From NCBI RefSeq assembly GCF_058153355.1, contig NZ_CM177019.1: a stretch of 64,000 bases of DNA, one strand, 5' to 3'. The notes beneath the pieces are model-generated. The model had not been told where the DNA came from. It saw only the letters and a program-made list of their open reading frames with translations, and made no database searches. Positions 10,652-54,128 of the stretch are shown piece after piece. Position 1 is the first letter of the stretch; each line of letters begins with the position of its first letter. Made by a program: the position numbers and the translations under genes.

Positions 10652-10710
10652 CAAAGACGGAAAAACGGGCACTTCGGCGTAAAGATATCCGGTCAGCACC
10701 CGATATTGCA

Positions 10711-30337: not shown

Positions 30338-30356
30338 CGAAGTTGGGCAATACAAC

Positions 30357-30440: not shown

Positions 30441-30456
30441 TTATTGCGTTGGGCTA

Positions 30457-31722: not shown

Positions 31723-31759
31723 GTTTCACACCTTTTGACTCTTCACTGTTAATCGGAAA

Positions 31760-33040: not shown

Positions 33041-33041
33041 T

Positions 33042-34529: not shown

Positions 34530-34678
34530 TATGACTCCTGTTTCACGTGTATCAGATATATGCAGTTTGTGAACGTCAGGGCGCAGAGATCCCCGGGCCG
34601 TATGCCCGTTTATTTCTGGCGACATTCTTTATGGATTGCCGGGCGCATTGCGCTTACCCGGCTTACAGAACAAAAAGA

Positions 34679-35236: not shown

Positions 35237-35262
35237 ATTTGCATTTCCTTAAACTGTAGTGG

Positions 35263-36027
35263 TCAGAGTCGCTGTTTTTCAGCGATATGGTGCTGACAAG
35301 CGGTGATAAAGCCCTCGAACAATATACGCGAAAGCGCGTATTCGCTACTGTTCCATTCCGGGTGCCACTGTACGCCCAGCGCAAAAGGATGATTGATGAC
35401 GCTAACCGCCTCAACTAAGCCATCCGGCGAGCGGGCTTCAACACGCAACCGTGAGCTAACGACCTTCGCCCCTTGTCCATGCAGAGAGTTTACCCAAAAG
35501 TTGCTACATTCAGGTAACAGTGCAGACAGCAATCCCCCCTCTTCAACCTGAACTTCATGCGACGGTGCATATTGCTGTTCCACCGGCAGTTCGGGATCTT
35601 CCCGATGTTCCAGCAATTCAGGCTGTTCGCACAGCTTGCGATGCAACGAACCACCGGTTGCCACCACCAGTTCCTGTAAACCCCGGCAGATGGCGAAAAT
35701 GGGGATGCGCCTTTCGAGTGCGGCATTAATTAACGCCATGCTCAGAAGATCACGCCCGGGATCGGCGTCAGGCTCATCGCCGTTTTCACCATATAGGTGC
35801 GGCTGCACATTGCTGGGACTACCAGGAAGATAAATACCATCGAGTTTCGGCAAAAGTTGTTCAAGTAATGACGGTTCCGCCAGCGCATGTGGCAGCGCAA
35901 TTGGCAAGCCGCCTGCGTGGATGATGGCATTCAGGTACTTTTCTTGCAGAGTCTGGGTCGCATGACCCTTAAGCCTGTTCCTGCACATTACGACACCGAT
36001 AACCGGATTGTTCATTATATTTTCCAT
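35263..36027 (-). CDS. puuD: Gamma-glutamyl-GABA hydrolase (class I glutamine amidotransferase-like)
   Basis: ORF 35263..36039; start at MENIMNNPVIGVVMC gives 254 aa. Confidence 0.9.
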   Translation of the reverse strand: MENIMNNPVIGVVMCRNRLKGHATQTLQEKYLNAIIHAGGLPIALPHALAEPSLLEQLLPKLDGIYLPGSPSNVQPHLYGENGDEPDADPGRDLLSMALINAALERRIPIFAICRGLQELVVATGGSLHRKLCEQPELLEHREDPELPVEQQYAPSHEVQVEEGGLLSALLPECSNFWVNSLHGQGAKVVSSRLRVEARSPDGLVEAVSVINHPFALGVQWHPEWNSSEYALSRILFEGFITACQHHIAEKQRL

Positions 36028-36238
36028 GCTCAATCTCACAAAGTGGACTAAATTATCGCCATTACTGCGCTTTAAATGACCTTTATGTTCAATATTTTTT
36101 CAATCTAGCAGCGGGTTTTCATTTTTGCAAACTTAATTTAACATTTGACAAACATTTAGTTTGCATACGGATTCGAATGGTGGTCATTATATTTTACGCT
36201 TTGATAACGAGCGGAAAACAAACCAAAGGCGAAGAATC

Positions 36239-37657: not shown

Positions 37658-37959
37658 TACCCCTTGCGGGGTTGTTTCAGCGGCCTGAGCGGAGCCAGGC
37701 CTGACATTTGCTGGTAATCCAGACATTTCCCGGATGTCGCGTTATGGAGCGCAGGCGGCAACGGGCTTCCGTTAACGATTAAGACTGTGACGAGGAAATG
37801 AGATGATGCCGATGATTAAATCCCCGCATGGCGAGGGAGGCTGCGTATGCGCCCCTCCTGCGACTGACTGGACTCCGCCCCCTTTGCTTCCCTTGCTAAA
37901 CAGGTTTGATTTCAGGTCGATACGACCGCAAACCTTATTACGCAGGGGAGGCAGCAATT

Positions 37960-39345
37960 ATGGCTATTAATTCACCACTGAATATTGCTGCGCAACCCGG
38001 CAAAACCCGTCTGCGAAAATCACTGAAATTGTGGCAGGTCGTCATGATGGGCCTCGCCTATCTCACGCCGATGACTGTGTTCGATACCTTTGGCATCGTT
38101 TCCGGCATCAGCGACGGCCACGTTCCGGCATCCTATTTGCTGGCGCTGGCGGGCGTGTTGTTTACCGCGATCAGCTACGGCAAACTGGTTCGCCAGTTTC
38201 CGGAGGCCGGTTCGGCCTATACCTACGCGCAAAAGTCGATTAACCCGCACGTCGGATTTATGGTCGGCTGGTCATCGCTGCTGGATTATCTCTTTTTGCC
38301 GATGATCAACGTTTTGTTGGCGAAAATCTATCTCTCCGCCCTCTTCCCGGAAGTGCCGCCGTGGGTGTGGGTGGTAACCTTCGTCGCCATTTTAACCGCC
38401 GCGAATCTGAAGAGCGTCAACCTGGTCGCTAACTTCAATACCTTGTTTGTACTGGTGCAAATCTCCATCATGGTGGTGTTTATCTTCCTAGTGGTTCAGG
38501 GACTACATAAAGGAGAAGGCGTTGGCACCGTCTGGTCACTTCAGCCGTTTATCAGCGAGAACGCGCACCTGATCCCGATTATTACCGGGGCGACGATTGT
38601 CTGTTTCTCGTTCCTCGGTTTCGATGCGGTGACCACGCTTTCGGAAGAGACGCCGGACGCCGCACGCGTGATCCCGAAAGCCATCTTCCTGACGGCGGTA
38701 TACGGCGGCATTATCTTTATCGCGGCGTCGTTCTTTATGCAGCTGTTCTTCCCGGATATCAGCCGCTTTAAAGATCCGGACGCCGCACTGCCGGAAATCG
38801 CACTGTACGTTGGCGGCAAGTTGTTCCAGTCGATTTTCCTCTGCACGACGTTTGTGAACACGTTAGCGTCTGGCCTGGCGTCACATGCCAGCGTGTCGCG
38901 TCTGCTGTATGTGATGGGGCGCGACAATGTGTTTCCGGAACGCGTGTTTGGCTATGTGCATCCGAAATGGCGGACTCCGGCACTGAATGTCATTATGGTC
39001 GGGGTTGTCGCGTTGTCAGCGCTGTTCTTTGATTTAGTCACCGCGACAGCATTGATTAACTTCGGTGCTCTGGTGGCGTTTACCTTCGTTAACCTGTCGG
39101 TGTTTAATCATTTCTGGCGGCGTAAAGGAATGAATAAAAGCTGGAAGGATCACTTCCACTATTTGCTGATGCCGCTGGTTGGCGCGCTGACGGTGGGTGT
39201 GCTGTGGGTTAACCTCGAGTCAACGTCACTGACACTCGGTCTGGTATGGGCTTCATTAGGCGGCGCATATTTGTGGTATCTGATCCGCCGCTATCGCAAA
39301 GTGCCGTTGTATGAGGGTGACAGAACGCCGGTGAGCGAAACGTAA
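37960..39345 (+). CDS. puuP: Putrescine importer (APC superfamily)
   Basis: ORF 37906..39345; start at [18 protein letters not shown] gives 461 aa; multi-TM. Confidence 0.9.
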
Positions 39346-39354
39346 TAGTCGGAT

Positions 39355-39393
39355 GCGCGGCGCATTATCCTGCCTGAGGGTAATGCGCCGCGC
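39355..39393. terminator. GC-rich inverted repeat downstream of puuP (terminator or REP-like)
   Basis: gcgcggcgcattatcc ... gggtaatgcgccgcgc imperfect palindrome immediately after the puuP stop; no clear U-run. Confidence 0.45.
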
Positions 39394-39478
39394 CATTAAC
39401 TATAAAAAGATGTATGACCCGGATCACGAGTGCTATCATCCGCCCTTATGCTTAGCACATTAACCCCAGGGGCAAATA

Positions 39479-39724
39479 ATGAACCACGATATCCCGCTTA
39501 AATATTTTGATATTGCCGATGAGTACGCGACCGAATGCGAAGAGCCTGTCGCAGACGTTGAACGCACACCGCTGGCCCACTACTTCCAGTTACTGCTCAC
39601 CCGTTTGATGAACAATGAAGAGATCAGCGAAGAAGCCCAACATGAAATGGCTGCTGAAGCGGGGATTAATCCCGTACGCATTGATGAGATCGCAGAGTTT
39701 TTGAATCAATGGGGTAATGAGTAA
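39479..39724 (+). CDS. ymjA: Small protein YmjA (DUF2543)
   Basis: 81-aa [39 protein letters not shown]... Confidence 0.8.
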
Positions 39725-39758
39725 TTATTTCATTGCAGACGCTCGGTCAGTATCGTTG

Positions 39759-39788
39759 CCCGGATAAAGCGTTCACGCCGCATCCGGC
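39759..39788. repeat. REP element downstream of ymjA
   Basis: gcccggataaagcgttcacgccgcatccggc palindromic unit. Confidence 0.55.
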
Positions 39789-40036
39789 TAAAAATGACAC
39801 GCACTGCAGCGTGCTTTAATGGGTTTCTCACGATCGTACCGCTCTGCTCCTCGCTAAGTTGTTCTGTGAGTTATAGTTATAGAGAAATCACGGGTACGAA
39901 TGTTGAACAGATGGCGACGTCACCTGTTCAACGACCAACCACACGGCCCTCATTACGACCCCTGAACACAAACGGTAATGGCAAATGTCATTAAATATTA
40001 GTAAGATAGCCTCTTTACATAAAATCCCTTAATATT

Positions 40037-41680
40037 ATGCGCCAGGTATTATCGTCTCTTTTGGTGATTGCTGGACTTGTGAGTGGTCAGGCAATCGCCG
40101 CGCCTGAATCCCCCCCGCATGCTGATATCCGCGACAGCGGTTTTGTCTATTGCGTCAGCGGGCAAGTCAACACCTTTAACCCATCCAAAGCGAGCAGTGG
40201 GTTAATTGTCGATACCCTTGCCGCCCAGTTTTATGATCGACTCCTGGATGTCGATCCCTATACCTATCGCCTGATGCCGGAACTTGCCGAAAGCTGGGAA
40301 GTGCTCGACAACGGCGCGACCTATCGCTTCCACCTGCGTCGCGATGTTCCGTTTCAAAAAACCGACTGGTTTACTCCCACTCGTAAAATGAATGCCGACG
40401 ATGTGGTGTTTACCTTCCAGCGAATTTTTGACCGTAACAACCCGTGGCATAACGTCAACGGCAGCAACTTTCCCTACTTCGACAGCCTGCAATTTGCCGA
40501 TAACGTGAAAAGCGTCCGCAAACTGGATAATCATACCGTTGAGTTCCGACTCGCCCAGCCAGATGCTTCTTTTTTGTGGCACCTGGCGACCCATTATGCA
40601 TCGGTCATGTCGGCAGAATATGCCCAGAAGTTAGAGAAAGAAGATCGCCAGGAACAACTCGACCGTCAGCCGGTCGGCACTGGACCGTATCAGTTATCGG
40701 AATACCGCGCCGGGCAATTTATTCGCCTACAACGTCATGATGACTTCTGGCGCGGCAAACCGTTAATGCCGCAGGTGGTGGTGGATTTAGGCTCCGGCGG
40801 CACCGGACGTCTTTCGAAACTTCTGACAGGTGAATGCGACGTTCTGGCCTGGCCTGCTGCCAGCCAGCTATCTATTTTGCGTGACGATCCGCGCTTGCGT
40901 TTAACGCTGCGTCCGGGGATGAATGTCGCCTATCTGGCATTTAACACCGCCAAACCGCCGCTTAATAATGCCGCCGTGCGCCATGCGCTGGCTCTGGCGA
41001 TCAATAACCAACGCCTGATGCAATCCATCTATTATGGTACGGCTGAAACGGCGGCCTCTATTTTACCGCGCGCCTCGTGGGCCTATGACAACGAGGCTAA
41101 AATTACTGAATACAATCCGGCGAAATCGCGCGAACAGTTGAAGGCGTTAGGGCTGGAAAACTTAACGCTGAAACTTTGGGTGCCCACACGTTCGCAGGCG
41201 TGGAACCCCAGTCCACTGAAAACCGCCGAACTGATTCAGGCGGATATGGCGCAGGTTGGCGTAAAAGTGGTGATTGTGCCGGTAGAAGGTCGTTTTCAGG
41301 AGGCGCGGTTGATGGATATGAGCCATGATCTGACGTTATCCGGTTGGGCGACAGACAGTAACGATCCGGACAGTTTCTTTCGTCCGCTACTGAGCTGCGC
41401 AGCAATACATTCCCAGACCAACCTCGCCCACTGGTGCGATCCGAAATTCGACAGCGTGTTGCGTAAGGCGCTCTCCTCGCAGCAGCTAGCGGCGCGTATT
41501 GAAGCCTATGACGAAGCGCAAAGTATTCTGGCGCAGGAATTGCCCATTTTGCCGCTGGCGTCGTCATTGCGCTTGCAAGCCTACCGTTACGATATCAAAG
41601 GGCTGGTTCTTAGCCCGTTTGGTAACGCCTCCTTTGCTGGTGTGTATCGCGAGAAACAGGATGAGGTGAAAAAACCATGA
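40037..41680 (+). CDS. sapA: Periplasmic solute-binding protein of the Sap ABC transporter
   Basis: 547-aa ORF with signal peptide [21 protein letters not shown]. Confidence 0.9.
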
Positions 41681-42642
41681 TTATCTTCACCTTACGCCGC
41701 ATTTTGTTATTGATTGTCACCTTGTTCCTGCTGACGTTCGTTGGCTTTAGCTTGAGCTATTTCACCCCACATGCGCCGTTACAAGGCGCTTCACTGTGGA
41801 ATGCCTGGGTGTTCTGGTTTAACGGCCTGATCCATTGGGATTTTGGTGTTTCCAGCATTAACGGTCAGCCGATTGCCGAACAGTTAAAAGAGGTCTTCCC
41901 GGCGACGATGGAACTGTGCATCCTCGCCTTCGGTTTTGCGCTGATTGTTGGCATCCCCGTAGGAATGATTGCCGGGATTACGCGCCATAAGTGGCAGGAT
42001 AACTTGATCAACGCCATCGCCTTACTGGGCTTTTCAATCCCGGTGTTCTGGCTGGCGCTTCTGTTGACGCTGTTTTGTTCACTCACGCTAGGTTGGTTGC
42101 CCGTTTCAGGGCGTTTCGATCTGCTCTACGAAGTGAAACCGATTACCGGTTTTGCGTTGATTGATGCCTGGCTTTCGGACTCACCGTGGCGGGATGAAAT
42201 GATCATTAGCGCAATCCGTCATATGGTATTGCCCGTGATCACCCTGTCGGTTGCGCCAACAACTGAAGTGATCCGACTAATGCGTATCAGCACTATCGAA
42301 GTGTATGACCAGAATTATGTAAAAGCGGCGGCGACCCGCGGTTTGTCACGCTTTACTATTTTGCGTCGCCACGTTCTGCATAACGCGTTACCTCCGGTTA
42401 TTCCTCGCCTGGGCTTACAATTTTCCACCATGCTGACGCTGGCAATGATCACCGAAATGGTCTTTAGCTGGCCGGGTTTAGGGCGCTGGTTAATTAACGC
42501 CATCCGCCAGCAAGATTACGCGGCCATTTCCGCCGGAGTGATGGTGTGTGGCTCACTGGTCATTATTGTTAACGTGATTTCTGATATTTTGGGTGCCATG
42601 GCTAACCCTCTGAAACATAAGGAATGGTATGCCTTACGATAG
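41677..42642 (+). CDS. sapB: Sap ABC transporter permease
   Basis: 321-aa hydrophobic ORF; 4-bp overlap with sapA. Confidence 0.9.
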
Positions 42643-43519
42643 CGTATACAGCGAAAAGCGCCCGCCGGGCACGCTGCGTACCGCCTGGCGCAAATTTTAT
42701 AGTGATGCCTCTGCGATGGTCGGTCTGTACGGCTGCGCGGGACTGGCTGTACTGTGTATTTTTGGCGGCTGGTTTGCGCCTTACGGAATCGATCAGCAAT
42801 TTCTCGGCTATCAATTATTGCCGCCTTCATGGTCACGCTATGGCGAAGTTTCTTTCTTCCTGGGGACTGACGACCTCGGACGCGATGTTTTAAGTCGTTT
42901 ACTGAGTGGAGCTGCACCAACCGTGGGGGGGGCATTTGTGGTGACGCTTGCAGCGACGATCTGTGGCCTGGTACTTGGCACCTTTGCCGGGTCGACGCAC
43001 GGTCTACGCTCAGCGGTGCTTAACCATATTCTGGATACCTTACTGGCGATCCCTTCCCTACTGCTGGCAATTATCGTTGTAGCGTTTGCCGGACCGAGTT
43101 TGTCGCACGCCATGTTTGCCGTCTGGCTGGCGCTGCTGCCTCGTATGGTACGTTCGATTTACAGCATGGTGCATGACGAACTGGAAAAAGAGTACGTTAT
43201 CGCCGCCCGTCTGGATGGCGCATCAACGCTGAATATTCTCTGGTTTGCTGTGATGCCAAACATCACCGCCGGGCTGGTCACCGAGATCACCCGCGCACTG
43301 TCGATGGCAATTCTCGATATCGCCGCGCTGGGCTTTCTCGATCTCGGCGCACAACTCCCCTCGCCTGAATGGGGAGCGATGCTCGGTGATGCGCTGGAAC
43401 TGATTTATGTCGCCCCGTGGACTGTCATGCTGCCAGGTGCGGCAATTATGATTAGCGTGCTGTTGGTTAACCTCCTTGGCGACGGTGTTCGTCGTGCAAT
43501 TATTGCGGGGGAGGAATAA
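42629..43519 (+). CDS. sapC: Sap ABC transporter permease
   Basis: 296-aa hydrophobic ORF. Confidence 0.9.
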
Positions 43520-44511
43520 TGCCATTACTCGATATTCGTAACCTGACCATTGAATTTAAAACCGGTGATGAGTGGGTTAAAGCCGTCGACCGCGTAAGTA
43601 TGACCTTAACCGAAGGTGAAATCCGCGGTCTTGTTGGCGAATCCGGTTCCGGCAAAAGTTTGATTGCAAAAGCAATTTGTGGGGTGAATAAAGATAACTG
43701 GCGTGTTACTGCTGACCGTATGCGTTTTGATGATATCGATTTGCTGCGTCTCTCCGCACGCGAACGGCGCAAGCTGGTTGGTCACAACGTGTCGATGATT
43801 TTCCAGGAACCGCAGTCGTGTCTTGACCCTTCAGAACGTGTGGGTCGCCAGTTGATGCAAAACATCCCAGCCTGGACCTATAAAGGCCGTTGGTGGCAGC
43901 GTTTTGGCTGGCGCAAACGCCGTGCCATTGAACTACTGCACCGTGTGGGGATTAAAGATCACAAAGATGCGATGCGCAGTTTTCCCTATGAGTTGACCGA
44001 AGGTGAATGTCAGAAAGTGATGATAGCCATTGCACTGGCGAATCAACCGCGTCTGCTGATTGCTGACGAACCGACAAACTCAATGGAGCCAACAACCCAG
44101 GCGCAAATTTTTCGCCTGTTGACGCGTCTCAACCAAAACAGCAATACCACTATTTTGCTTATCAGCCATGACTTACAAATGCTTAGCCAATGGGCGGATA
44201 AAATTAACGTGCTTTACTGCGGTCAAACGGTGGAAACCGCGCCAAGCAAGGAGTTGGTGACAATGCCACATCATCCTTATACCCAGGCGCTGATCCGCGC
44301 GATACCAGACTTCGGCAGCGCGATGCCGCATAAAAGTCGCCTCAATACGCTGCCCGGCGCTATCCCACTGCTGGAACAGTTACCGATTGGGTGTCGTCTG
44401 GGGCCGCGTTGCCCGTATGCACAACGAGAATGCATTGTGACGCCACGTTTGACGGGGGCGAAAAATCATCTCTATGCCTGTCATTTCCCGCTGAACATGG
44501 AGAAAGAGTGA
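43519..44511 (+). CDS. sapD: Sap ABC transporter ATP-binding protein
   Basis: 330-aa ORF with Walker A GESGSGKS. Confidence 0.9.
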
Positions 44512-44512
44512 G

Positions 44513-45319
44513 ATGATCGAAACGCTGCTTGAAGTGCGTAATTTAAGTAAAACGTTCCGCTACCGGACCGGCTGGTTTCGTCGTCAGACCGTAGAAGCGG
44601 TAAAACCCTTGAGCTTTACGCTACGTGAAGGCCAGACACTGGCGATCATTGGCGAGAATGGTTCTGGTAAATCCACGCTGGCAAAAATGCTGGCGGGAAT
44701 GATAGAACCTACCAGCGGCGAGTTATTGATTGACGATCATCCGCTGCATTTTGGCGATTATTCCTTCCGCAGTCAGCGTATTCGCATGATTTTTCAGGAT
44801 CCTTCGACCTCGTTAAATCCCCGTCAACGTATCTCGCAAATTCTGGATTTTCCACTGCGTCTGAACACCGATCTGGAACCTGAACAGCGTCGCAAACAGA
44901 TTATTGAAACGATGCGTATGGTTGGGCTGCTACCGGATCACGTCAGTTACTATCCGCATATGTTGGCACCCGGGCAAAAACAGCGTCTGGGGCTGGCGCG
45001 CGCGCTGATATTGCGCCCAAAAGTCATTATTGCCGATGAAGCCCTCGCCTCACTGGATATGTCGATGCGTTCGCAGTTGATTAATCTGATGCTGGAATTA
45101 CAGGAAAAACAGGGCATTTCGTATATTTATGTTACCCAGCATATCGGAATGATGAAGCACATTAGCGACCAGGTGCTGGTGATGCATCAGGGAGAGGTTG
45201 TCGAGCGAGGTAGTACTGCGGATGTGCTCGCCTCTCCGCTGCACGACCTCACTAAACGACTGATTGCCGGTCATTTTGGCGAGGCATTGACGGCGGATGC
45301 GTGGCGTAAGGACCGTTAG
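44513..45319 (+). CDS. sapF: Sap ABC transporter ATP-binding protein
   Basis: 268-aa ORF with Walker A GENGSGKST. Confidence 0.9.
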   Translation: MIETLLEVRNLSKTFRYRTGWFRRQTVEAVKPLSFTLREGQTLAIIGENGSGKSTLAKMLAGMIEPTSGELLIDDHPLHFGDYSFRSQRIRMIFQDPSTSLNPRQRISQILDFPLRLNTDLEPEQRRKQIIETMRMVGLLPDHVSYYPHMLAPGQKQRLGLARALILRPKVIIADEALASLDMSMRSQLINLMLELQEKQGISYIYVTQHIGMMKHISDQVLVMHQGEVVERGSTADVLASPLHDLTKRLIAGHFGEALTADAWRKDR

Positions 45320-45325
45320 TGTTTT

Positions 45326-45368
45326 GCACCTCATCCTGACAGGCCCCCCCCCTCAGGATGAGGTGTTC
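45326..45368. terminator. Bidirectional hairpin between the convergent sapF and MFS genes, with a C10 homopolymer in the loop
   Basis: cacctcatcctga - caggcccccccccc - tcaggatgaggtg; 13-bp perfect stem. Confidence 0.6.
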
Positions 45369-45369
45369 A

Positions 45370-46533
45370 TTACTTTTGATTGTCGATTCTGGTGAGAGCA
45401 ACCAGCAATGCCAGCGTATAACACACCGTAATTGCCAGACTCATTTTTAACAGTGTTTCTCCGCCAATTCCCGACAATGGCGCGGCTATACCGCCGAAGA
45501 CAAACATGCTCATCCCCATCAACGCAGACGCCGTTCCAGATTCCTGCGTCCCTACTGCACTCATAGCCTCTGCCCCGCCAACAGTGCCGATGCCGCTACA
45601 AAATGCGATGGTGAAAAATAATGCCACCAGTGCCGGAATGGGCAATTGTACCCATGCGCATAAGACCGTGAGCAATGCACACAAAATTGCCGCTATCAGG
45701 CCACCTCGCAACAATGTCATCGCGTTAATCCGTCGCGCCAGGCGCGAGAAGATCCATGAAGCAATGATAAGTCCGATGCCGTTAAGGCCAAACACCAGGC
45801 TAAATTGCATTGGACTAAAGCCAAATTCCTTCTGCAACACGAACGACGAAGAGCCGATATACGCAAACAAACCGGCCAGCATAAAACTTTGAATCAGGCA
45901 AAAGCGCATAAAAAGGCGGTTCTGCACCACGCTTCGTCCGGTTAATAGCAATGATGAGCCCCTTTTATTTTCTGGCAAGGTCTCATTAATAAATAACAGG
46001 CAGCCCAGCAACAGTACGGTGCTAATTTCAGCCATTACCCAGAATAAAGTGCGCCAGTCAAAAGTGCTAACAATGTACCCGCCCAGCACTGGCGACAACA
46101 CCGGTGCCAGGCCATTCACCGTCATTAACAGCGCAAAAAACTGGGTCAACGTTACTCCCTGATATTTGTCACGAGCAATAGAACGAGAGAGCACCGAACC
46201 ACCCGCCCCCGCGATCCCTTGAATAAAACGCCAGACCACCAGCCAGTAAATATTGTTCGTTGTCGCGCACAAAATGGAAGAAACAATAAACAATAGCAAC
46301 GACAAGATTAACGGACGTTTACGCCCTATTTTGTCGCTCAGAGGGCCAAATAACAGTTGTCCGACGCCAAGACCGATCAGTGATGCAGTCAGGGTTAATT
46401 GCGTTATGGTCGTGGTTGCCGCCAGTTGCTCAGACATCTCCGGCAAAGCCGGCAAATAAAGATCGGTACACATCGGGCCGATACCGGCTAAAAGACCAAG
46501 AATCAATGCCCATGAAAGAGAGACTCTAGCCAT
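45370..46533 (-). CDS. MFS transporter, 12-TM drug:H+ antiporter type (Bcr/CflA-like)
   Basis: 387-aa hydrophobic ORF with MFS signature region GPLSDKIGRKRP; last gene of a co-directional efflux cluster. Confidence 0.8.
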   Translation of the reverse strand: MARVSLSWALILGLLAGIGPMCTDLYLPALPEMSEQLAATTTITQLTLTASLIGLGVGQLLFGPLSDKIGRKRPLILSLLLFIVSSILCATTNNIYWLVVWRFIQGIAGAGGSVLSRSIARDKYQGVTLTQFFALLMTVNGLAPVLSPVLGGYIVSTFDWRTLFWVMAEISTVLLLGCLLFINETLPENKRGSSLLLTGRSVVQNRLFMRFCLIQSFMLAGLFAYIGSSSFVLQKEFGFSPMQFSLVFGLNGIGLIIASWIFSRLARRINAMTLLRGGLIAAILCALLTVLCAWVQLPIPALVALFFTIAFCSGIGTVGGAEAMSAVGTQESGTASALMGMSMFVFGGIAAPLSGIGGETLLKMSLAITVCYTLALLVALTRIDNQK

Positions 46534-46541
46534 ATTATTCC

Positions 46542-47915
46542 TTACTTGAGTGATGACATGCCGCCGCCCAGCGACTGCCAGAGCGTGATTCGGTTTGTAA
46601 AATCAGTCAGTTGCAGTGCCAGCAGCTCCTGCTGTGCGCTCCACAAGCTGCGCTGCGCCGTCAACACGGTCAGGTAATCACCAACACCCGCCTGATAGCG
46701 ACGCAAGCCAACATCGACCGTTTGTTGCTCAGCTTTAACATACTGGCGCTGTGCATCCAGTTGCTCTTCAAGCGTGGTCCGCCGCGCCAGTGCGTTAGCG
46801 ACATCTTTAAATGCGCTCTGAACGGTTTTTTCATAGGTGGCAATGAGCCCACGCTTTTGTGCTTCTGCGTAACGAAGCTGCGCCAGATTACTTCCGCCAG
46901 TGAACAGCGGTAATGTGACCGATGGTGCAAATGACCAGATCTGCATTCCGTGGCTGAACAACGACGACAATGCGTCACTGCCCACACCGGCACTGGCAGT
47001 CAGCGAAATCGTCGGGAAAAAGTTAGCCCGCGCCGCGCCAATATCTGCATTGGCGCTCTTCAAATTATGTTCCGCTTCCTGGATATCCGGGCGACGCAGC
47101 AGAACATCAGATGATACTCCCGCAGGAACCAGACTTATCATTTGTTCCGGCAGGCTTTCCAGTGTTCCCGGTAGCAGATTTTCCGCAAGCGTTGTACCTG
47201 CCAGTAAGTTCAGCGCATTTTTATCCTGCATCACTTGTGTCTGATAGCTGGCAACGCTGGCGCGCGCTTGCTGATAAACACTCATCGCCTCACTGACATC
47301 TGTCGCTGCCGCCGTGCCAACCTGTTGCTGGCGCTGGATAATTTTCAATGAGTTTTCTGCACTGGCCATCGTTTCTTTTGCCAGGGCCAGGTTGCTGTTA
47401 TCGGCCGCCAGTGTCAGCCAGGCGGTGCTGATTTCAGCAATCAGCGTTAAACGAGTGTTCTGGGCTGTAAATTCACTGGCAAGCCAGGTTTCCCGCGCCG
47501 CCCGAGATAAACTCTGATTACGACCAAACAGATCTAACGTATAACTGGACACCGTGCCGTCAGCCTCGGCAGTTGTTCCCGTACCATTCGCCAGCGAACG
47601 ACTGCGAGTCGAACTTAAGGCCGCATTCACCGTCGGAAATAACGACGCATTAGTTTGCCCATAGAGCGCCCGTGCTGAGTCAATATCAGCAATCGCTTTT
47701 TGCACATCGCGGTTACTGTTCAGTGCAATGGTTACTACCTGCTGCAATCGGGGATCGTGAATCACCTGCTGCCAGTCATGGCTGATTGCCTTCCCCTGGC
47801 CCTGTGCTCCCGGCAAGGTCGCCGGGATTGGGGATTCAGGCGTACTGTAGTGAGGATCGAGCGAGACACATCCCGCACTCAACAACACCAGAAAAATAAG
47901 AGAACGACGCAACAT
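46542..47915 (-). CDS. Outer-membrane efflux lipoprotein (NodT/OprM family)
   Basis: 457-aa ORF with lipobox (LLSAGCVSL) and OEP-type repeats. Confidence 0.85.
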   Translation of the reverse strand: MLRRSLIFLVLLSAGCVSLDPHYSTPESPIPATLPGAQGQGKAISHDWQQVIHDPRLQQVVTIALNSNRDVQKAIADIDSARALYGQTNASLFPTVNAALSSTRSRSLANGTGTTAEADGTVSSYTLDLFGRNQSLSRAARETWLASEFTAQNTRLTLIAEISTAWLTLAADNSNLALAKETMASAENSLKIIQRQQQVGTAAATDVSEAMSVYQQARASVASYQTQVMQDKNALNLLAGTTLAENLLPGTLESLPEQMISLVPAGVSSDVLLRRPDIQEAEHNLKSANADIGAARANFFPTISLTASAGVGSDALSSLFSHGMQIWSFAPSVTLPLFTGGSNLAQLRYAEAQKRGLIATYEKTVQSAFKDVANALARRTTLEEQLDAQRQYVKAEQQTVDVGLRRYQAGVGDYLTVLTAQRSLWSAQQELLALQLTDFTNRITLWQSLGGGMSSLK

Positions 47916-47918
47916 AAC

Positions 47919-50900
47919 TTACTCCTGACGGCGCGGTTTACCGGCAAACAAACGTTTCACCAGTACAAAAAACAGAGGAACGAAGAAAATGGCCAGTAAT
48001 GTAGCGGTCAGCGTGCCGCCAATAATGCCCGTACCAATGGCGATGCGGCTGTTCGCCCCTGCACCGGTTGCTATCGCCAGCGGCATTACCCCCGCAATAA
48101 ACGCCAGCGAGGTCATGATGATTGGGCGTAAACGAGTCTGCGCCGCGCGTAATGCCGCACGACTCAAGGAATAACCCTCTGCAACCGCCGCTTCAGCAAA
48201 TTCCACAATCAGAATGGCGTTTTTCGACGACAAGCCGATAGTAGTTAATAGCGCTACCTGGAAGTAAACGTCGTTGTTTAAATCACGCATCCAGGCCGCC
48301 AGCGCCGCGCCAAGAAGCCCCAGAGGGATCACCAGAATGACCGAGAACGGGACTGACCAGCTTTCGTACAGTGCTGCAAGGCAGAGGAAAACCACCAGAA
48401 TAGAAACTGCATACAGACTTAATGCCTGACCGCTCGCCAGTTTCTCCTGCAATGACAAACCACTCCAGGCCCAGGTTGTTCCCGCAGGAAGACTGTTTGC
48501 CAGTTCCTCCATTTTTGTCATTGCATCGCCGGAACTAAAGCCAGTCGCGTTTTCGCCCTGAATTTCATAGGCTGCCGAGCCGTTGTAGCGCACCAGTCTT
48601 TCCGGTCCATACTGCCAGCGGGTGGTCGCAAAAGCAGAGAATGGTGTCATGGCGTTATCGCTACCGCGCACAAACCATTTACCTAAGTCTGACGGCGCAG
48701 AACGAAATTCGCTGTCGCCCTGAATGTAGACTTTTTTCACACGACCACGGTCAATAAAGTCATTCACATAAGTACCGCCCCACGCACTGGACAGGGTGTC
48801 GGTGACATCATTCAAACTCAACCCTAATGACACCGCTTTATTGCTATCAATATCTACCTGCAATTGCGGCATTTGTGGCAAATCATTGGCGCGTACAGAA
48901 TGTAACTCCGGACTTTGATTCGCTTTTTCTATCAACTGATTACGCATTTGCAGCAGTGTTTCACGATCGGTTCCACCGTTAGCTAACAATTCAAACGTAA
49001 AACCATTGCTTTGGCCCAGCCCATCAACGGCTGGCGGCGTCATCGCAAATACCGTCGCATCACGAATTGTGCCCAGCTCTTTGGTAGCCCGTAGGGCGAT
49101 AGCCTGGGCGGTGTTTTCTGCCCCTTTACGTTGAGACCAGTTTTTCAACGAAACAAACGCCATCCCGGTGTTCTGTCCGCTGCCGCTAAAACTGAAACCA
49201 TCAACGGTAAAAATGACATCGGTATTTGCTTTCTCGTTAATCAGGAACCAGTCAACAATCTGGCGATTCACTTCTGCTGTACGGGCAGCGGTCGCCCCGG
49301 CCGGCAGCGTGTACTGCACCATGATTTCGCCCTGGTCTTCAGTGGGTAAGAAACTGCCCGGCAGTTTCCACATCATCAGGGCCATTCCACCACCCAGCAC
49401 GACATAAAGCCCCATCGTTCGGGCTGCACGGCGCAGGACATAAATTACGCCTCGCTGATATTTATCTTCAGTACGGCGGTAAAAGCGGTTAAATGCGCCG
49501 AAAAAGCCTTTTTTATGTGGCGGAACATGCTGGAGGACGGAACCGCACAGGGCGGGAGTCAAGGTCAATGCCACCACCACGGAAAGCAGCATTGCGGAGA
49601 TGATGGTGATGGAGAACTGACGATAAATTACGCCCGTAGATCCCCCAAAGAAGGCCATCGGCAGGAATACGGCTGACAACACCAGCGCAATGGCAACCAG
49701 TGCGCCAGAAATCTCGCCCATTGATTTTTCCGTGGCTTCACGCGCGGGCAACCCTTCGTCACGCATAATGCGTTCGACGTTCTCCACCACCACAATGGCA
49801 TCGTCCACCAGCAAGCCGATCGCCAGCACCATTGCAAACAACGTCAGGGTATTAATCGAATAGCCAAACAACGCAAGAACGCCGAATGTGCCCAGCCAAA
49901 CGACGGGGACAGCTAACGCCGGAATCAGTGTGGCACGCAGGTTTTGCAGGAATAAATACATCACGCAAACCACCAATACGATGGCTTCAAACAGCGTCTG
50001 AATTACGTCCTCTACGGAGATTTTAATAAATTCAGTGCTGTCTTTCGGGTATGCGATGTCGTATCCCTGCGGCATGTTCCGCTGGAATTCGGCAATCTTA
50101 TCCTTGACCAGCGTCGCCGTATTCAGCGCATTCGCACCGGGCGAAAGCATTACAGCAACCCCGGCAGACGGGTGACCGTTAAGTTTGCCGATAGCGGTAT
50201 AATCTTCACTGCCCATCTCAACGCGAGCCACATCTTTTATACGAACAACTGCGCCGTCTGACTGGCTTTTCACGATAATATTTTTGAACTGATCCACCGT
50301 CTGCAAGCGAGACTGCGCACGTACCGTTGCGGTCAGTTGCTGAGTATCCGGTGAAGGCAATGCCCCTATTTTCCCGGCAGTAACCTGCACGTTTTGCGCT
50401 TCAATAGCACTTTGCACGTCTGAAGGCATCAGCGAGTAAGACGCCAGTTTGGCCGGGTCGAGCCAGATGCGCATAGCGTATTCCGCGCCAAAGACTTGCA
50501 GACTCCCCACACCTTCAACACGCGCCAGGGGGTCCTGAACGTTACTGACCAGCCAGTCGGCGATATCCGAACTGGAGGCTTTGTCAGTGGTGTCATACAC
50601 GGCAGCAATCAGCAAAAAGTTGCTTTGTGATTTCTCCACCGTAACACCCGTTTGCTGCACTTCGCTGGGTAGGCGCGACTCCGCCTGCTGAATTTTATTC
50701 TGCACCTGAACCTGTGCAGTATCTGGATCGGTACCTTGTTCAAAGGTCACATTAATACTGACCGAACCATCAGAGCTACTGGTTGAGCTGAAATAGAGTA
50801 AATTATCAAGCCCAGTGAGTTGTTGCTCGATAACCTGAGTCACGCTGTTCTCCAGCGTTTCGGCAGAAGCACCAGTATAAGTGGCTGAAATTTTAATGGT

Positions 50901-51026
50901 CGGCGGTGCAACGTCAGGATATTGCGCGACGGGTAATGTGCGAATAGCCAGAATCCCCGCCAACATAATCAAAATGGCGATAACCCAGGCAAAGACCGGG
51001 CGGCGAACAAAAAAGCGCGAAAACAT
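47919..51026 (-). CDS. RND multidrug efflux permease (AcrB/HAE1 family)
   Basis: 1035-aa ORF MFSRFFVRRPVFAWVIAILIMLAGILAI...; size and N-terminus typical of AcrB-like pumps. Confidence 0.9.
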   Translation of the reverse strand: MFSRFFVRRPVFAWVIAILIMLAGILAIRTLPVAQYPDVAPPTIKISATYTGASAETLENSVTQVIEQQLTGLDNLLYFSSTSSSDGSVSINVTFEQGTDPDTAQVQVQNKIQQAESRLPSEVQQTGVTVEKSQSNFLLIAAVYDTTDKASSSDIADWLVSNVQDPLARVEGVGSLQVFGAEYAMRIWLDPAKLASYSLMPSDVQSAIEAQNVQVTAGKIGALPSPDTQQLTATVRAQSRLQTVDQFKNIIVKSQSDGAVVRIKDVARVEMGSEDYTAIGKLNGHPSAGVAVMLSPGANALNTATLVKDKIAEFQRNMPQGYDIAYPKDSTEFIKISVEDVIQTLFEAIVLVVCVMYLFLQNLRATLIPALAVPVVWLGTFGVLALFGYSINTLTLFAMVLAIGLLVDDAIVVVENVERIMRDEGLPAREATEKSMGEISGALVAIALVLSAVFLPMAFFGGSTGVIYRQFSITIISAMLLSVVVALTLTPALCGSVLQHVPPHKKGFFGAFNRFYRRTEDKYQRGVIYVLRRAARTMGLYVVLGGGMALMMWKLPGSFLPTEDQGEIMVQYTLPAGATAARTAEVNRQIVDWFLINEKANTDVIFTVDGFSFSGSGQNTGMAFVSLKNWSQRKGAENTAQAIALRATKELGTIRDATVFAMTPPAVDGLGQSNGFTFELLANGGTDRETLLQMRNQLIEKANQSPELHSVRANDLPQMPQLQVDIDSNKAVSLGLSLNDVTDTLSSAWGGTYVNDFIDRGRVKKVYIQGDSEFRSAPSDLGKWFVRGSDNAMTPFSAFATTRWQYGPERLVRYNGSAAYEIQGENATGFSSGDAMTKMEELANSLPAGTTWAWSGLSLQEKLASGQALSLYAVSILVVFLCLAALYESWSVPFSVILVIPLGLLGAALAAWMRDLNNDVYFQVALLTTIGLSSKNAILIVEFAEAAVAEGYSLSRAALRAAQTRLRPIIMTSLAFIAGVMPLAIATGAGANSRIAIGTGIIGGTLTATLLAIFFVPLFFVLVKRLFAGKPRRQE

Positions 51027-52147
51027 CAGGCATTGCCTCCATTAGCCTGAACTTCAACAGCCTTGACGGTCTGCCCTGAAGTGACTTTGGCAGAACCTTC
51101 AACAATCAGTCGGTCGCCGTTGTGCAGGCCGTTCAGCACCAGCCATTTATCACCATACGTTTCTCCCGTTTCGAGCGTTCGCTGCTCTACTTTATTGTCT
51201 TTATTCACCACCAGCGCAGTTGCATTGCCTTTAGCATCGCGCGTAACGCCCTGTTGAGGCGCGAGAATAGCGTTTTCCATCACGCCTTCATCGACACGAG
51301 CGCGAACAAACATTCCCGGTAATAACTGCTGTTGTGGATTGGGGAAAATTGCCCGTAATGTCACCGAACCGGTAGACTCATCCACCGCGACTTCGGTGAG
51401 TTCCAGACGCCCTTTTTCGCTGTAGGTTGTGCCATCTTCCAGAATAAGTGAGACGCTCATGGTGTCACTGTTGGTCGCCAGTGACTGTTTACGCAGACGT
51501 AATAAATCGACACTGGAGCGAGTGAGGTCGACATACATTGTATCCAGACCACGAATAGTCGTTAACGCTGTATCCTGCGACGCGGTCACCAGTGCGCCAG
51601 GGGTTACCGACGAAATACCAATACGCCCCGAAATCGGTGCGGTTACCGTGGTCCAGTCAAGATTAATGCGCGCAGTTTCCAGTGCGGCTTTTTTCGCCTC
51701 TACACTGGCTTTATCTTGTGCACAGGTAGACTGAGCATCATCAGCATCCTGTTGTGAAACACCATTCTCTTTCACCAGTCGGGCATAACGCTGCGCTTTC
51801 TGGCAATCGGCTTTTACCAGTGCCTGTGCTTGTTGTAATGCTGCCCGGGCTTCATTCCATGCAGCCTGATAACTGGCCGCATCAATCTGGTAGAGAGGCT
51901 GTCCAGCCTTGACCAGATCACCTTCCTTAAATAAGCGTTTCTGGATAATTCCCCCAACTTGCGGACGTACTTCAGCACTGAGCGCAGCACTGGTGCGTCC
52001 GGTTAATTCACTGACTACCGAAACCGGTTGAGATTTGAGCGTAACAACGCCGACTTCTGTTTCTGACGGGGATGAATTGTTACTTTGCGTATTATCACAA
52101 CCCGATAAGAGCAGCATTGCCACTACAGATGTTGCTATATACTTCAT
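51026..52147 (-). CDS. Periplasmic adaptor (membrane fusion protein, AcrA-like) of the RND pump
   Basis: ORF 51026..52180; preferred start MKYIATSVVAMLLLSGC (lipobox) at 52147, preceded by GGAG; stop overlaps the RND start. Confidence 0.85.
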   Translation of the reverse strand: MKYIATSVVAMLLLSGCDNTQSNNSSPSETEVGVVTLKSQPVSVVSELTGRTSAALSAEVRPQVGGIIQKRLFKEGDLVKAGQPLYQIDAASYQAAWNEARAALQQAQALVKADCQKAQRYARLVKENGVSQQDADDAQSTCAQDKASVEAKKAALETARINLDWTTVTAPISGRIGISSVTPGALVTASQDTALTTIRGLDTMYVDLTRSSVDLLRLRKQSLATNSDTMSVSLILEDGTTYSEKGRLELTEVAVDESTGSVTLRAIFPNPQQQLLPGMFVRARVDEGVMENAILAPQQGVTRDAKGNATALVVNKDNKVEQRTLETGETYGDKWLVLNGLHNGDRLIVEGSAKVTSGQTVKAVEVQANGGNA

Positions 52148-52174
52148 TATTTTCTCCAGGGTGAGAAATACCCT

Positions 52175-52275
52175 CCTCATTGAAATTAATGAGGATATGT
52201 CAGGGATATTCAGTTATAACGAACCCGCATCGCGAAATGAATTTCGCAATGAAATAAGGGGGATTAATATCCCCC
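52175..52275. promoter_or_regulatory. Cluster of three inverted repeats between the TetR gene and the MFP gene (candidate operators / pump promoter)
   Basis: tcctcatt-gaaatt-aatgagga (52174-52195), gcgaaat-ga-atttcgc (52232-52247), ggggga-ttaata-tccccc (52258-52275). Confidence 0.5.
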
Positions 52276-52295
52276 GCTATTGGTTAATTCTGTTC

Positions 52296-52862
52296 TTATT
52301 TATTTATCAACATACTAACAATATCCTGATATATTTCCTGCAGATGTTGTGGATCGCTTTTTTGCGGTGTTAAACGACGATAAACCGTACCTTCCATCAT
52401 GGTAGCAAACACTTCAACGCAGCAATGAATGTGATCGTCGCTAAGATGGGGATGCATTCTTTTCATATGTGCACAACCGTTAGCGAACATTCTGGCGTCA
52501 GCTTCTTCAAGCATTGCCATAACCCGCGGGTTGCGTGTGGCTTCTGCAGCCACTTCCAGCATCAGCGCGTCGTCGTCCTCATTTAAGGATTTACGCAAGG
52601 CAAGGACTTCCGGGAAGTGATCGGTACGCGCGTCAATGTCCATTTGGGCAATACGAAAGTCGATGATACGGCGAACCATCTCTTCAATAATGGCGTCTTT
52701 GTTGGCGAAGTAACGATATATCTGACCCACGCTAAGCTGAGCTTCGCTGGCAATTTGCGACATACTGGCGGCATGAAATCCGCAGCGACGAAAACACCGA
52801 CGGGCGGCGTTAATGATTTCATCCTGACGCTGTTTGTGGCGTATCTCCAGCTTGCTGGTCAT
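52296..52862 (-). CDS. TetR/AcrR-family transcriptional regulator
   Basis: ORF 52296..52961; preferred start MTSKLEIRHKQRQDEIINAARRCFRRCGFHAASMSQIASEAQLSVGQIYRYFANK (HTH near N-terminus), preceded by AGGAGA; co-directional with the pump genes. Confidence 0.75.
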   Translation of the reverse strand: MTSKLEIRHKQRQDEIINAARRCFRRCGFHAASMSQIASEAQLSVGQIYRYFANKDAIIEEMVRRIIDFRIAQMDIDARTDHFPEVLALRKSLNEDDDALMLEVAAEATRNPRVMAMLEEADARMFANGCAHMKRMHPHLSDDHIHCCVEVFATMMEGTVYRRLTPQKSDPQHLQEIYQDIVSMLINK

Positions 52863-52888
52863 TTCTGTCTCCTGGCCTATCACTTGGT

Positions 52889-52904
52889 GAGAATGATCAT
52901 TCTC
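52889..52904. promoter_or_regulatory. 16-bp perfect palindrome gagaatgatcattctc upstream of the TetR gene (candidate autoregulatory operator)
   Basis: Perfect dyad seen directly, 27 bp upstream of the preferred TetR start. Confidence 0.5.
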
Positions 52905-53339
52905 ATTTTTGCTAATTATACGTTTCTCCAAAGTAATGGAAAGTATTTTTATCTTATTCATGGTGCATATTCTGATAATGAAGAGATTGTGGAGATTCTG
53001 TGAAGATAGTTGACAATATTAAGTTGGGGTCAATTCATCAGAAAGGCAGCGACTTGTTGTCGCCAGTTCTGTTTTCATCATCAAACTTATCGGAGCTAAT
53101 ACGAATAGTTTCATAGTCAGATTCTATAAGATATTTCCCCAACCTACCCCTTGCAGGCGTCAAGAGTAGATAACGCAAAATGCTCTGTACCGCAGCTTCT
53201 CTCCGGTACAGAAAGCGCAACTATAGCCACCCACAGCCAGGTTGATTATAATAACCGTTTATCTGTTCGTACTGTTTACTAAAACGACGAATCGCCTGAT
53301 TTTCAGGCACAACAAGCATCAACAATAAGGATTAAAGCT

Positions 53340-54128
53340 ATGGGTTTTCTTTCCGGTAAGCGCATTCTGGTAACCGGTGTTGCCAGCAAACTGTCCATCG
53401 CCTACGGTATCGCTCAGGCGATGCACCGCGAAGGAGCTGAACTGGCATTCACCTACCAGAACGACAAACTGAAAGGCCGCGTAGAAGAATTTGCCGCTCA
53501 ATTGGGTTCTGACATCGTTCTGCAGTGCGATGTTGCAGAAGATGCCAGCATCGACACCATGTTCGCTGAACTGGGTAAAGTTTGGCCGAAATTTGACGGC
53601 TTTGTACATTCCATTGGTTTTGCACCGGGCGATCAGCTGGATGGTGACTATGTTAACGCCGTTACTCGTGAAGGCTTCAAAATTGCCCACGACATCAGCT
53701 CCTACAGCTTCGTTGCAATGGCAAAAGCTTGCCGCTCCATGCTGAATCCGGGCTCTGCCCTGCTGACCCTTTCCTACCTTGGCGCTGAGCGCGCTATCCC
53801 GAACTACAACGTTATGGGTCTGGCAAAAGCGTCTCTGGAAGCGAACGTGCGCTATATGGCGAACGCGATGGGTCCGGAAGGTGTGCGTGTTAACGCCATC
53901 TCTGCTGGTCCGATCCGTACTCTGGCGGCTTCCGGTATCAAAGACTTCCGCAAAATGCTGGCTCATTGCGAAGCCGTTACCCCGATTCGCCGTACCGTTA
54001 CTATTGAAGATGTGGGTAACTCTGCGGCATTCCTGTGCTCCGATCTCTCTGCCGGTATCTCCGGTGAAGTGGTCCACGTTGACGGCGGTTTCAGCATCGC
54101 TGCAATGAACGAACTCGAACTGAAATAA
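53340..54128 (+). CDS. fabI: Enoyl-ACP reductase (NADH), FabI
   Basis: 262-aa [43 protein letters not shown]...; recognised as E. coli FabI. Confidence 0.95.

Follow-up and report, generated by a model that had tools for sequence, protein, structure and literature searches.

The stretch of DNA analysed here (64,000 nucleotides of contig NZ_CM177019.1, assembly GCF_058153355.1; hereafter the window) carries five genes on the minus strand between sapF and fabI, whose products score 589 bits (cut-off 452) and 595 bits (cut-off 477), respectively, against their NCBIfam equivalog models. In the order of transcription, these are eefR (52296–52862), encoding a TetR-family autorepressor of 188 aa; eefA (51026–52147), a periplasmic adaptor (MFP) lipoprotein of 373 aa; eefB (47919–51026), an RND (HAE-1) permease of 1035 aa; eefC (46542–47915), a NodT/OprM-type outer-membrane factor lipoprotein of 457 aa; and eefD (45370–46533), a Bcr/CflA-type MFS transporter (DHA1) of 387 aa; all five are intact. 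A first-pass annotation, made from the raw sequence, had described five co-directional, tightly packed genes, and its coordinates proved exact to the base: eefA and eefB share 1 nt at their stop and start codons, and the following gaps measure 3 bp and 8 bp. None of the five reading frames contains an internal stop, and the same gene order, TetR, MFP, RND, OMF, MFS, is annotated in RefSeq genomes. The eefA and eefR frames could be extended to 52180 and 52961; RefSeq keeps the short starts (52147 and 52862) in other strains.

The protein families named in the first-pass annotation were likewise recovered, with all transporter assignments above curated NCBIfam cut-offs. EefA scores 274 bits against the MFP model TIGR01730 (cut-off 94.9), EefB 1552 bits against the RND model TIGR00915 (cut-off 940), placing it in the HAE-1 family, EefC 373.8 bits against the OMF model TIGR01845 (cut-off 210) and EefD 279 bits against the MFS Bcr/CflA model TIGR00710 (cut-off 200.9), while the TetR N-terminal domain of EefR is matched by many NCBIfam TetR models. 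At the finer level of equivalogs, EefB falls short of AcrB (1379 versus 2150), AcrD (1410 versus 1854), OqxB (845 versus 2200) and MdtC (490 versus 1774), and is a paralogue distinct from all four. EefD similarly stays under the Bcr (226 versus 303) and TcaB (313 versus 475) equivalog cut-offs; it carries MFS motif A as GPLSDKIGRK at residue 63, and by its family score is assigned to the Bcr/CflA subfamily of DHA1 MFS exporters. EefB retains the proton-relay residues D408, D409, K935 and T972, EefA has the lipobox LSGC with Cys17, and the EefC N-terminus reads ...LLSAGC.

Upstream of eefR lies a putative EefR operator (52888–52905), TGAGAATGATCATTCTCA, which forms a perfect 18-bp palindrome. 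It differs by one central base from the EMSA-validated sequence TGAGAACGATCATTCTCA, and none of 100 shuffled sequences gave a match; the published operator has a C at this spacer position, where the window has a T that makes the palindrome perfect. Both half-sites of the motif TGAGAA-N6-TTCTCA are intact in the window, and half-sites 37–49 bp upstream of eefR are kept in 32 of the 48 loci of our genome scan, with the window spacer TGATCA recurring in the operators of E. albertii and Phytobacter. The operator begins 9 nt downstream of the -10 element of a predicted σ70 eefR promoter (52915–52942, minus strand; -35 TTTCCA, 16-nt spacer, -10 TATAAT), which matches 10 of 12 consensus positions. 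Published work shows that ~316 bp upstream of eefR drive a GFP reporter, and that mutation of eefR at V45 or R50 abolishes repression; both residues are present in the window translation. Autorepression and five-gene co-transcription were established in ATCC 35218 derivatives, where cDNA spans every eef junction and loss of eefR derepresses the genes together, by 27- to 83-fold (Shen et al. 2025, PMC12482432), bearing out the single operon that had been suggested from gene packing.

Between eefR and eefA, the transcript would include a leader of 148 nt (52148–52295, minus strand) with three conserved stem-loops followed by the eefA ribosome-binding site. Hairpin 1 (52275–52258) resembles a terminator and is followed by UUAUUU; hairpin 2 (52251–52228) and hairpin 3 (52195–52174) lie downstream of it on the same strand. 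The leader folds with z = -3.7 in the window, and with z < -2 in all 25 orthologous leaders. Covariation could be scored for hairpin 2, which is 95% paired and has 33 compensatory cells compared with 1–11 in slid controls; MAFFT shifts the stems of hairpins 1 and 3 by 1–2 columns between genera, and these two are supported by per-sequence folds instead of alignment covariation. No Rfam family matched the leader, and a hit to Bcj14 (E = 0.078) was set aside as chance, as it falls within the coding part of eefA and scores well below its gathering threshold. This conserved structured RNA is a feature we did not find described in the two main eefRABCD papers. Hairpin 1 may terminate part of the transcription that leaves eefR.

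Both edges of the allele-specific segment were mapped. On the left, a convergent terminator hairpin (45327–45365) with a perfect 13-bp stem, CACCTCATCCTGA / TCAGGATGAGGTG, and a C-rich loop is common to sapF (plus strand) and eefD (minus strand), and a similar stem is present in the alternative allele, which carries ycjD. On the right, an AT-rich upstream region of the eef allele (52906–53189; about 44–46% GC in 1-kb windows) runs to ~53189, homology to the ycjD allele restarts at 53190, and a fabI promoter match common to both alleles (53224–53252) precedes fabI. K-12-type genomes have only ycjD here (354 nt, DUF559), as the first-pass annotation had stated. Among 5,426 complete E. coli genomes, ycjD was found in 3,378 and eef in 2,037–2,043, confirming that the operon is accessory; the sum, 5,421, shows that eef and ycjD are mutually exclusive alleles of the sapF–fabI site in a near-perfect either/or. 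In one K-12-type genome searched by blastn at word size 7, the ycjD allele matched the eef allele only in its flanking sequence and at the terminator stem of sapF, everything else having E > 1; the 'conserved operon fragments' described by Pugh et al. 2026 (PMC12817139, Fig. 3) were not reproduced in the one such genome compared.

We conclude, with a probability of about 95%, that the cluster is the published E. coli eefRABCD operon, a chromosomal locus under EefR control. The literature (Colclough et al. 2019, PMC6790063; Shen et al. 2025, PMC12482432; Pugh et al. 2026, PMC12817139) describes the operon as encoding a seventh RND-type efflux pump, an accompanying MFS transporter and a dedicated repressor, and places it in the sapF–fabI interval, where other strains have ycjD; roughly 40% of E. 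coli strains carry it. The window shares with it the five genes, their order, orientation and spacing, the sapF–fabI position and the operator half-sites, and no functional difference of the window copy is visible from sequence. Its Eef proteins are 98.9–100% identical in amino acids to those of the E. coli KE48 and STO_Bone4 alleles, and 98.4–99.1% identical to those of O157:H7. None of the 5,426 complete genomes exceeds 99.0% identity to the chromosome surrounding the operon, so the strain belongs to a poorly sampled lineage. The locus is therefore real but already described and under active study, so this main finding alters nothing; it does show that a reading of raw sequence alone recognised and correctly classed a real, strain-variable efflux operon, down to its likeness to eef-type operons, which is its actual name.

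The experiments of others establish autorepression, operator binding, co-transcription and, on overexpression, efflux, and the window copy is intact with its operator, promoter, catalytic residues and lipoprotein signals. In the model that we propose, EefR would bind the 18-bp palindrome 9 nt downstream of its own promoter's -10 element and hold expression of the five genes close to zero. Once EefR is lost to mutation or otherwise inactivated, or presumably when it is ligand-bound, transcription would proceed through eefR and the 148-nt structured leader into eefA, eefB, eefC and eefD. The EefA lipoprotein adaptor, the proton-driven EefB permease and the OprM-like EefC channel would then assemble a tripartite pump that takes up amphiphilic compounds in the periplasm and inner membrane and expels them from the cell, and EefD, a predicted 12-TM MFS antiporter, would export substrates across the inner membrane. 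EefD and EefABC probably work in sequence.

An earlier suggestion from the sequence, that such a pump could contribute to drug, bile or solvent tolerance, stands in part: pBR322 eef constructs raise MICs 8- to 32-fold in ΔacrB cells (Shen et al. 2025, PMC12482432), whereas deletion gave no phenotype and expression from pET or pACYC left antibiotic MICs unchanged, with effects seen only on ethidium and rhodamine 6G (Pugh et al. 2026, PMC12817139). There is close to an even chance that the operon serves a natural, non-antibiotic substrate in host life, such as a host-derived or endogenous metabolite, and that drug efflux is a side-effect of overexpression. Within each of phylogroups B2, D, E, F and G the operon is highly conserved, at >97% nucleotide identity, one study found no antibiotic phenotype (Pugh et al. 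2026, PMC12817139), and the dedicated ligand-type TetR repressor and its operator are strongly conserved across genera, which argues for a specific inducing signal. Some pathogens nevertheless dispense with eef, which is disrupted in S. dysenteriae and has a frameshifted eefB across O157:H7, and the neighbours at 47 loci show no metabolic linkage. The only ones to recur are an unannotated 146-aa protein and, in Enterobacter and Kluyvera, a second TetR + DHA2-MFS pair, a pattern that reflects shared synteny and offers no hint of metabolism.

A cryptic multidrug-resistance reserve, silenced by EefR and unlocked by eefR mutations when AcrB is compromised, is a serious possibility that we hold at somewhat below even odds. 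Sanguinarine selected exactly such mutations, eefR V45E and R50S, and the MICs of several drugs rise on overexpression as given above; the selection took place in an acrB-deficient strain, though, and the phenotype was shown in acrB-deficient hosts only. Dyes excepted, MICs did not change when the operon was deleted from ATCC 25922 or expressed in MG1655, with or without ΔacrB, and the claimed plasmid spread finds no support in the PLSDB records checked.

Those records merit a comment of their own, which we did not find made in the two main eefRABCD papers: the 'plasmid' eef copies examined are mislabelled pieces of chromosome. Two of the records inspected contain a chromosomal ymjA-sap-eef-fabI-rnb-pdeR block and are non-mobilizable, and a third is 4.9 Mb long. 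Given this chromosomal content, we rejected plasmid carriage for the records inspected, and if such 'plasmid' copies come from mis-assembly of the chromosome, the risk of spread by plasmids has been put too high.

A recent genomic island, inserted horizontally into a K-12-like sapF-ycjD-fabI backbone, is improbable. The fact that about 62% of complete E. coli genomes have no eef, the lack of any sequence common to the two alleles between the flanks, and the closer relationship of EefABC to Pseudomonas MexAB-OprM than to E. coli's own pumps, from which lateral acquisition has been suggested (Pugh et al. 2026, PMC12817139), would all be compatible with it. However, the GC content of the operon (0.50–0.54) equals that of its flanks, the promoter region alone being AT-rich, and the locus shows neither an integrase, an IS or a tRNA nor direct or inverted repeats at its two ends. 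Moreover, the fabI-eef-sapF synteny is identical in E. albertii, E. whittamii and Escherichia sp. MOD1, where the operon shows 90–94% nucleotide identity to the window; the same site together with divergence on the scale of species implies that any acquisition predates the genus, not K-12. A mobile island or plasmid-borne resistance cassette was likewise discarded, as mobility genes, bracketing repeats, a tRNA target, odd composition and, among the records inspected, genuine plasmid carriage are all lacking. Instead, eef looks like an old allele that was lost from K-12-like lineages, in which the younger ycjD probably replaced it; since no significant eef remnants were found in the ycjD allele of the one K-12-type genome compared, this loss is deduced from phylogenetic distribution and not from scars.

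That the window cluster is a decaying pseudo-operon is scarcely credible, and at the sequence level refuted: lineage-specific decay does exist, as a +1 G frameshift of eefB in O157:H7 and in S. dysenteriae, where an IS has taken the place of eefR and some of eefA, but the window has five full-length, uninterrupted frames, its proton-relay residues, lipoprotein signals, operator and promoter are all present, and the G-run that is frameshifted in O157 has its intact length, G5, in the window. The absence of the cluster from K-12 and the integrity of the window copy are both as the first-pass annotation had assumed.

Separately, the two main eefRABCD papers do not, as far as we found, report the eefB frameshift seen across O157:H7. 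If the whole serotype carries eefB as a pseudogene, the description 'highly conserved in pathogenic lineages' needs qualification, and lesions of this kind escape nucleotide-identity screens.

Among known systems, EefABC of Klebsiella (Enterobacter) aerogenes and K. pneumoniae is an orthologous tripartite RND pump and, like that of E. coli, stays cryptic in laboratory culture (Masi et al. 2005, 2006 and Coudeyras et al. 2008, as cited by others). E. coli and Klebsiella EefA, EefB and EefC are 78.1%, 87.3% and 74.9% identical (Shen et al. 2025, PMC12482432), and we find 78–80%, 86–89% and 73–79% against the eefRABC loci of Enterobacter, Kluyvera and Lelliottia. As described in those citing accounts, the K. 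aerogenes operon is eefABC without eefR and is silenced by H-NS, whereas the E. coli operon has its regulator first and an MFS gene last; our EefR-based scan returned no K. aerogenes or K. pneumoniae locus. AcrAB-TolC with acrR shares the tripartite RND architecture, the proton relay and a local TetR-family repressor, with EefB 57% identical to AcrB, but EefA scores 391 against an AcrA equivalog cut-off of 765, acrR is divergent, the gene for TolC is at another locus and no MFS gene is linked, so the co-directional regulator and trailing MFS gene do set the cluster apart, as first proposed. The operon for MexAB-OprM of Pseudomonas aeruginosa likewise encodes its own OprM-family lipoprotein channel. 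The best NCBIfam match of EefA is the MexA model (404 bits, below the equivalog cut-off of 750), EefB is 56.8% identical to MexB, and OprM and OprJ are the closest structural relatives of EefC; mexR, in contrast, is a divergent MarR-type regulator, and no MFS transporter is linked.

Finally, Erwinia, Pantoea, Lonsdalea and Brenneria have TetR + MFS units in which eefR is followed by a co-directional eefD orthologue and eefABC is absent, pairs that we did not find mentioned in the two main eefRABCD papers. The EefR and EefD trees are congruent. The TGAGAA-N6-TTCTCA operator is absent from the 160 bp upstream of eefR-eefD loci in Erwiniaceae and Pectobacteriaceae, and a blastn-short search for a chimeric R-D junction was not significant except beside the eefD start; direct junction alignments are suggestive and carry no statistics. 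Tentatively, at somewhat less than even odds, we regard the operon as a composite, made by insertion of eefABC into eefR-eefD, and the leader as a cis-regulatory RNA not yet catalogued that acts as a partial terminator or an attenuator; neither idea was found in the two main eefRABCD papers. An ancestral eefR-eefD operon may survive alone in Erwiniaceae and Pectobacteriaceae, and a MexAB-OprM-like eefABC cassette may have entered this unit in Enterobacteriaceae, which would account for an operon that begins with its regulator and ends with an MFS gene. Independent module losses may have given the R-ABC, R-D and R-only forms, and the leader may set the share of eefR-promoter transcription that reaches the pump genes. 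Together with the conserved leader, the series of R-D, R-ABC and R-ABC-D operons provides handles on how the operon was built up and is regulated, with a bearing on its natural substrate.

The interval between sapF (44513-45319, plus strand) and fabI (53340-54128, plus strand), both of which matched their NCBIfam models (SapF and FabI) above the curated cut-offs, holds five genes on the minus strand. These are a TetR regulator gene, eefR (52296-52862), the adaptor (MFP) gene eefA (51026-52147), the RND permease gene eefB (47919-51026), the outer-membrane channel (OMF) gene eefC (46542-47915) and the MFS gene eefD (45370-46533). Each is an open reading frame, and the last four match NCBIfam MFP, RND, NodT-type OMF and Bcr/CflA MFS models, respectively, above the curated cut-offs. 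The first-pass annotation had described five co-directional, tightly packed genes; our reading frames reproduce every coordinate exactly, with a 1-nt overlap between eefA and eefB followed by gaps of 3 bp and 8 bp. It had also suggested a likeness to eef-type operons, and full-text search showed that the locus is indeed the published E. coli eefRABCD operon. The five window proteins share 98.9-100% identity with the alleles in a pair of uropathogenic-type E. coli records, and 98.4-99.1% with those of O157:H7. On translation, none of the five genes contains an internal stop, EefB retains the proton-relay residues D408, D409, K935 and T972, EefA carries a lipobox (LSGC), and a cysteine signal of similar kind (LLSAGC) stands at the N-terminus of EefC.

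EefR has been shown to repress its own promoter and to bind the palindrome TGAGAACGATCATTCTCA; all five eef genes are co-transcribed and, once eefR is mutated, their expression rises 27- to 83-fold (Shen et al. 2025, PMC12482432). We located this operator in the window at 52888-52905 (TGAGAATGATCATTCTCA), where no chance matches are expected; it differs from the published site by one central base, its spacer being TGATCA, which makes the palindrome perfect, rather than the CGATCA of the published site and of O157:H7. The half-sites TGAGAA and TTCTCA do not vary in any of 32 loci; among these, the spacer also occurs as CGATCG, TGATCG, CGACCA, CAATCA and CGTTCA. A predicted σ70 promoter for eefR on the minus strand (52942-52915; TTTCCA, 16-nt spacer, TATAAT; 10 of 12 positions matching) ends 9 nt before the operator, so placed that operator-bound EefR would cover the transcription start. 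Translation of the window eefR shows both V45 and R50, mutation of either of which abolishes repression (Shen et al. 2025, PMC12482432). The regulatory logic of eef and the architecture of its pump are well supported.

Between eefR and eefA lies a leader (52148-52295, minus strand) whose counterparts measure 129-155 nt in 25 of the 29 loci having both genes. Folding each of the 25 aligned leaders, from 25 species, gave the same pattern of three hairpins from differing sequences (in the window, 52275-52258, 52251-52228 and 52195-52174), with fold z-scores below -2 in all 25 and a mean of -3.75. In hairpin 2, pairing reaches 95% and compensatory cells number 33, where slid controls gave 39-51% and 1-11; the frequent U·G pairs of this hairpin fit a sense-strand RNA structure rather than a DNA palindrome. 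Judged from these folds and from the strong covariation in hairpin 2, the leader is a conserved structured RNA, and an Rfam search with it returned no family match. Hairpin 1 lies past the stop codon of eefR with a U-rich tract behind it, as in an intrinsic terminator, and the two together resemble one that would stop part of the transcription after eefR; the leader may act as an attenuator. In Escherichia sp. MOD1-EC7003 (L006 10565-10842), the spacer is 272 nt compared to 148 nt in other Escherichia loci, indicating an insertion in its leader.

Of the 5,426 complete E. coli genomes searched, 2,037 had at least 80% of an 8.4-kb eef query; an 81-nt eefB probe was found in 2,043 and the small gene ycjD in 3,378, and these last two counts total 5,421, consistent with a pair of mutually exclusive alleles. 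Between the alleles, homology ends at the sapF stop codon and restarts at 53190 in the window, a short way upstream of the fabI promoter, meaning that ~7.86 kb of the window corresponds to ~0.64 kb in K-12-type genomes. Pugh et al. (2024 preprint on bioRxiv; Microbial Genomics 2026; PMC12817139) examined ~19,000 assemblies and located eef in phylogroups B2, D, E, F and G, invariably between sapF and fabI; phylogroups A, B1 and C have ycjD there instead.

At the species level, an EefR scan recovered fabI-eefRABCD-sapF also in E. albertii, E. whittamii, Escherichia sp. MOD1 and one divergent 'E. coli', at 90-94% nucleotide identity. The same arrangement at the same site in these genomes argues that the eef allele is old there. 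The eef segment equals its flanks in GC content except at its eefR and promoter end, which is AT-rich, and a search of the window for repeats, IS elements and tRNA genes bracketing the segment found none. The K-12-like state is most simply explained by replacement of the eef allele, in agreement with the loss of eef concluded by Pugh et al. (PMC12817139). When the ycjD allele of one K-12-type genome was compared with eef, matches did not exceed chance level except for a sapF terminator stem that both alleles have in similar form (CACCTCATyCTGA; window 45327-45365; 2848-2890 in the K-12-type locus L002). The loops of this terminator and its distance to the sapF stop codon differ between alleles; the window loop is a C9 run, and that of O157:H7 has another length and sequence. 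L002 has a second copy of the 3' end of ycjD (GGAGACGGTGCTGGAGAATATTC...) ~110 bp downstream of the first (3183-3240 and 3290-3336), and a GC-rich REP-like element stands between it and the fabI promoter; this hints at a past rearrangement of the site.

The genome deposited as 'E. coli SCPM-O-B-8794' (L003, whole locus) has only 91.8% identity to the window across eef, and probably represents a cryptic Escherichia lineage. For the window itself, the best-matching complete E. coli genome is a goat isolate over the puu-sap flank (30000-45300; 99.0% identity) and a different strain over the eef region (45000-53400; 99.5%); with no close match to the whole window among complete E. coli, the source strain would come from a lineage that is either mosaic or little sampled so far.

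Scanning for EefR orthologues revealed several architectures. The complete eefRABCD order occurs in Escherichia, some Kluyvera, Enterobacter soli and Kosakonia oryzendophytica; eefRABC without eefD in most Enterobacter, Lelliottia, Leclercia and Phytobacter; and eefR-eefD without the RND genes in Kluyvera georgiana, Kosakonia sacchari and every Erwinia, Pantoea, Winslowiella, Lonsdalea and Brenneria match (L009, L010, L022, L023, L026, L028, L030, L031, L037, L040, L041, L043, L045 and L048; ~10000-11900 in most). Three Kosakonia genomes had no eefA, eefB, eefC or eefD match downstream of eefR; in K. arachidis, the one Kosakonia in which reading frames were checked, the downstream genes lie on the opposite strand. 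The tree of EefR is congruent with that of EefD, eefR-eefD forms being basal, and the two trees suggest that within Kluyvera and Kosakonia this form is secondarily derived. Its spacer in Kluyvera resembles the eefR-eefA leader at the 5' end and the eefC-eefD spacer at the 3' end, as expected of a clean cassette indel. These patterns point to a modular operon that may have arisen by insertion of an RND cassette into a TetR-MFS pair.

In O157:H7, eefB carries an additional G (G5 to G6) at codon ~977, just past the proton-relay residue T972 in TM11, which shifts the frame. In RefSeq, three independent assemblies (from the USA, Japan and the UK; L001 5421-8523, L053 608-3716 and L054 614-3716) have this gene annotated as frameshifted, and the exact G6-bearing 81-mer is present in 289 complete genomes; the window has an intact G5 run (48089-48094). 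From its reading frame, eefB of O157:H7 is a predicted pseudogene; neither of the two main eef papers, Shen et al. 2025 and Pugh et al. 2026, uses the words 'frameshift' or 'pseudogene' for eefB. In some strains, eefB has an additional in-frame 6-nt deletion at the equivalent of window 50704-50709.

Three PLSDB E. coli 'plasmid' records contain eefRABCD (L051, NZ_CP141085.1; L052, CP054253.1; and NZ_CP134663.1), with sizes of 253 kb, 386 kb and 4.9 Mb, all non-mobilizable. Both inspected records (L051 and L052) hold the complete chromosomal block ymjA-sapABCDF-eef-fabI-yciW-rnb-pdeR, and by this gene content their eef copies look like chromosome fragments mislabelled as plasmids. Such mislabelling weakens the published suggestion of plasmid spread, although these records may not be among the five 'plasmid' strains listed by Shen et al. 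(their Table S6).

The physiological role of the pump is not well supported. Overexpressed from pBR322 in a ΔacrB background, eef increased the MICs of several drugs 8- to 32-fold (Shen et al., PMC12482432); deletion or expression of eef produced no antibiotic phenotype, with effects on ethidium and rhodamine 6G only (Pugh et al., PMC12817139). Conserved neighbouring genes across 47 loci offered no informative clue to substrates. The system in the window is already known and named, eefR with eefAB having first been noted in some E. coli and E. albertii by Colclough et al. 2019 (PMC6790063), and our side observations are modest refinements of that published picture.
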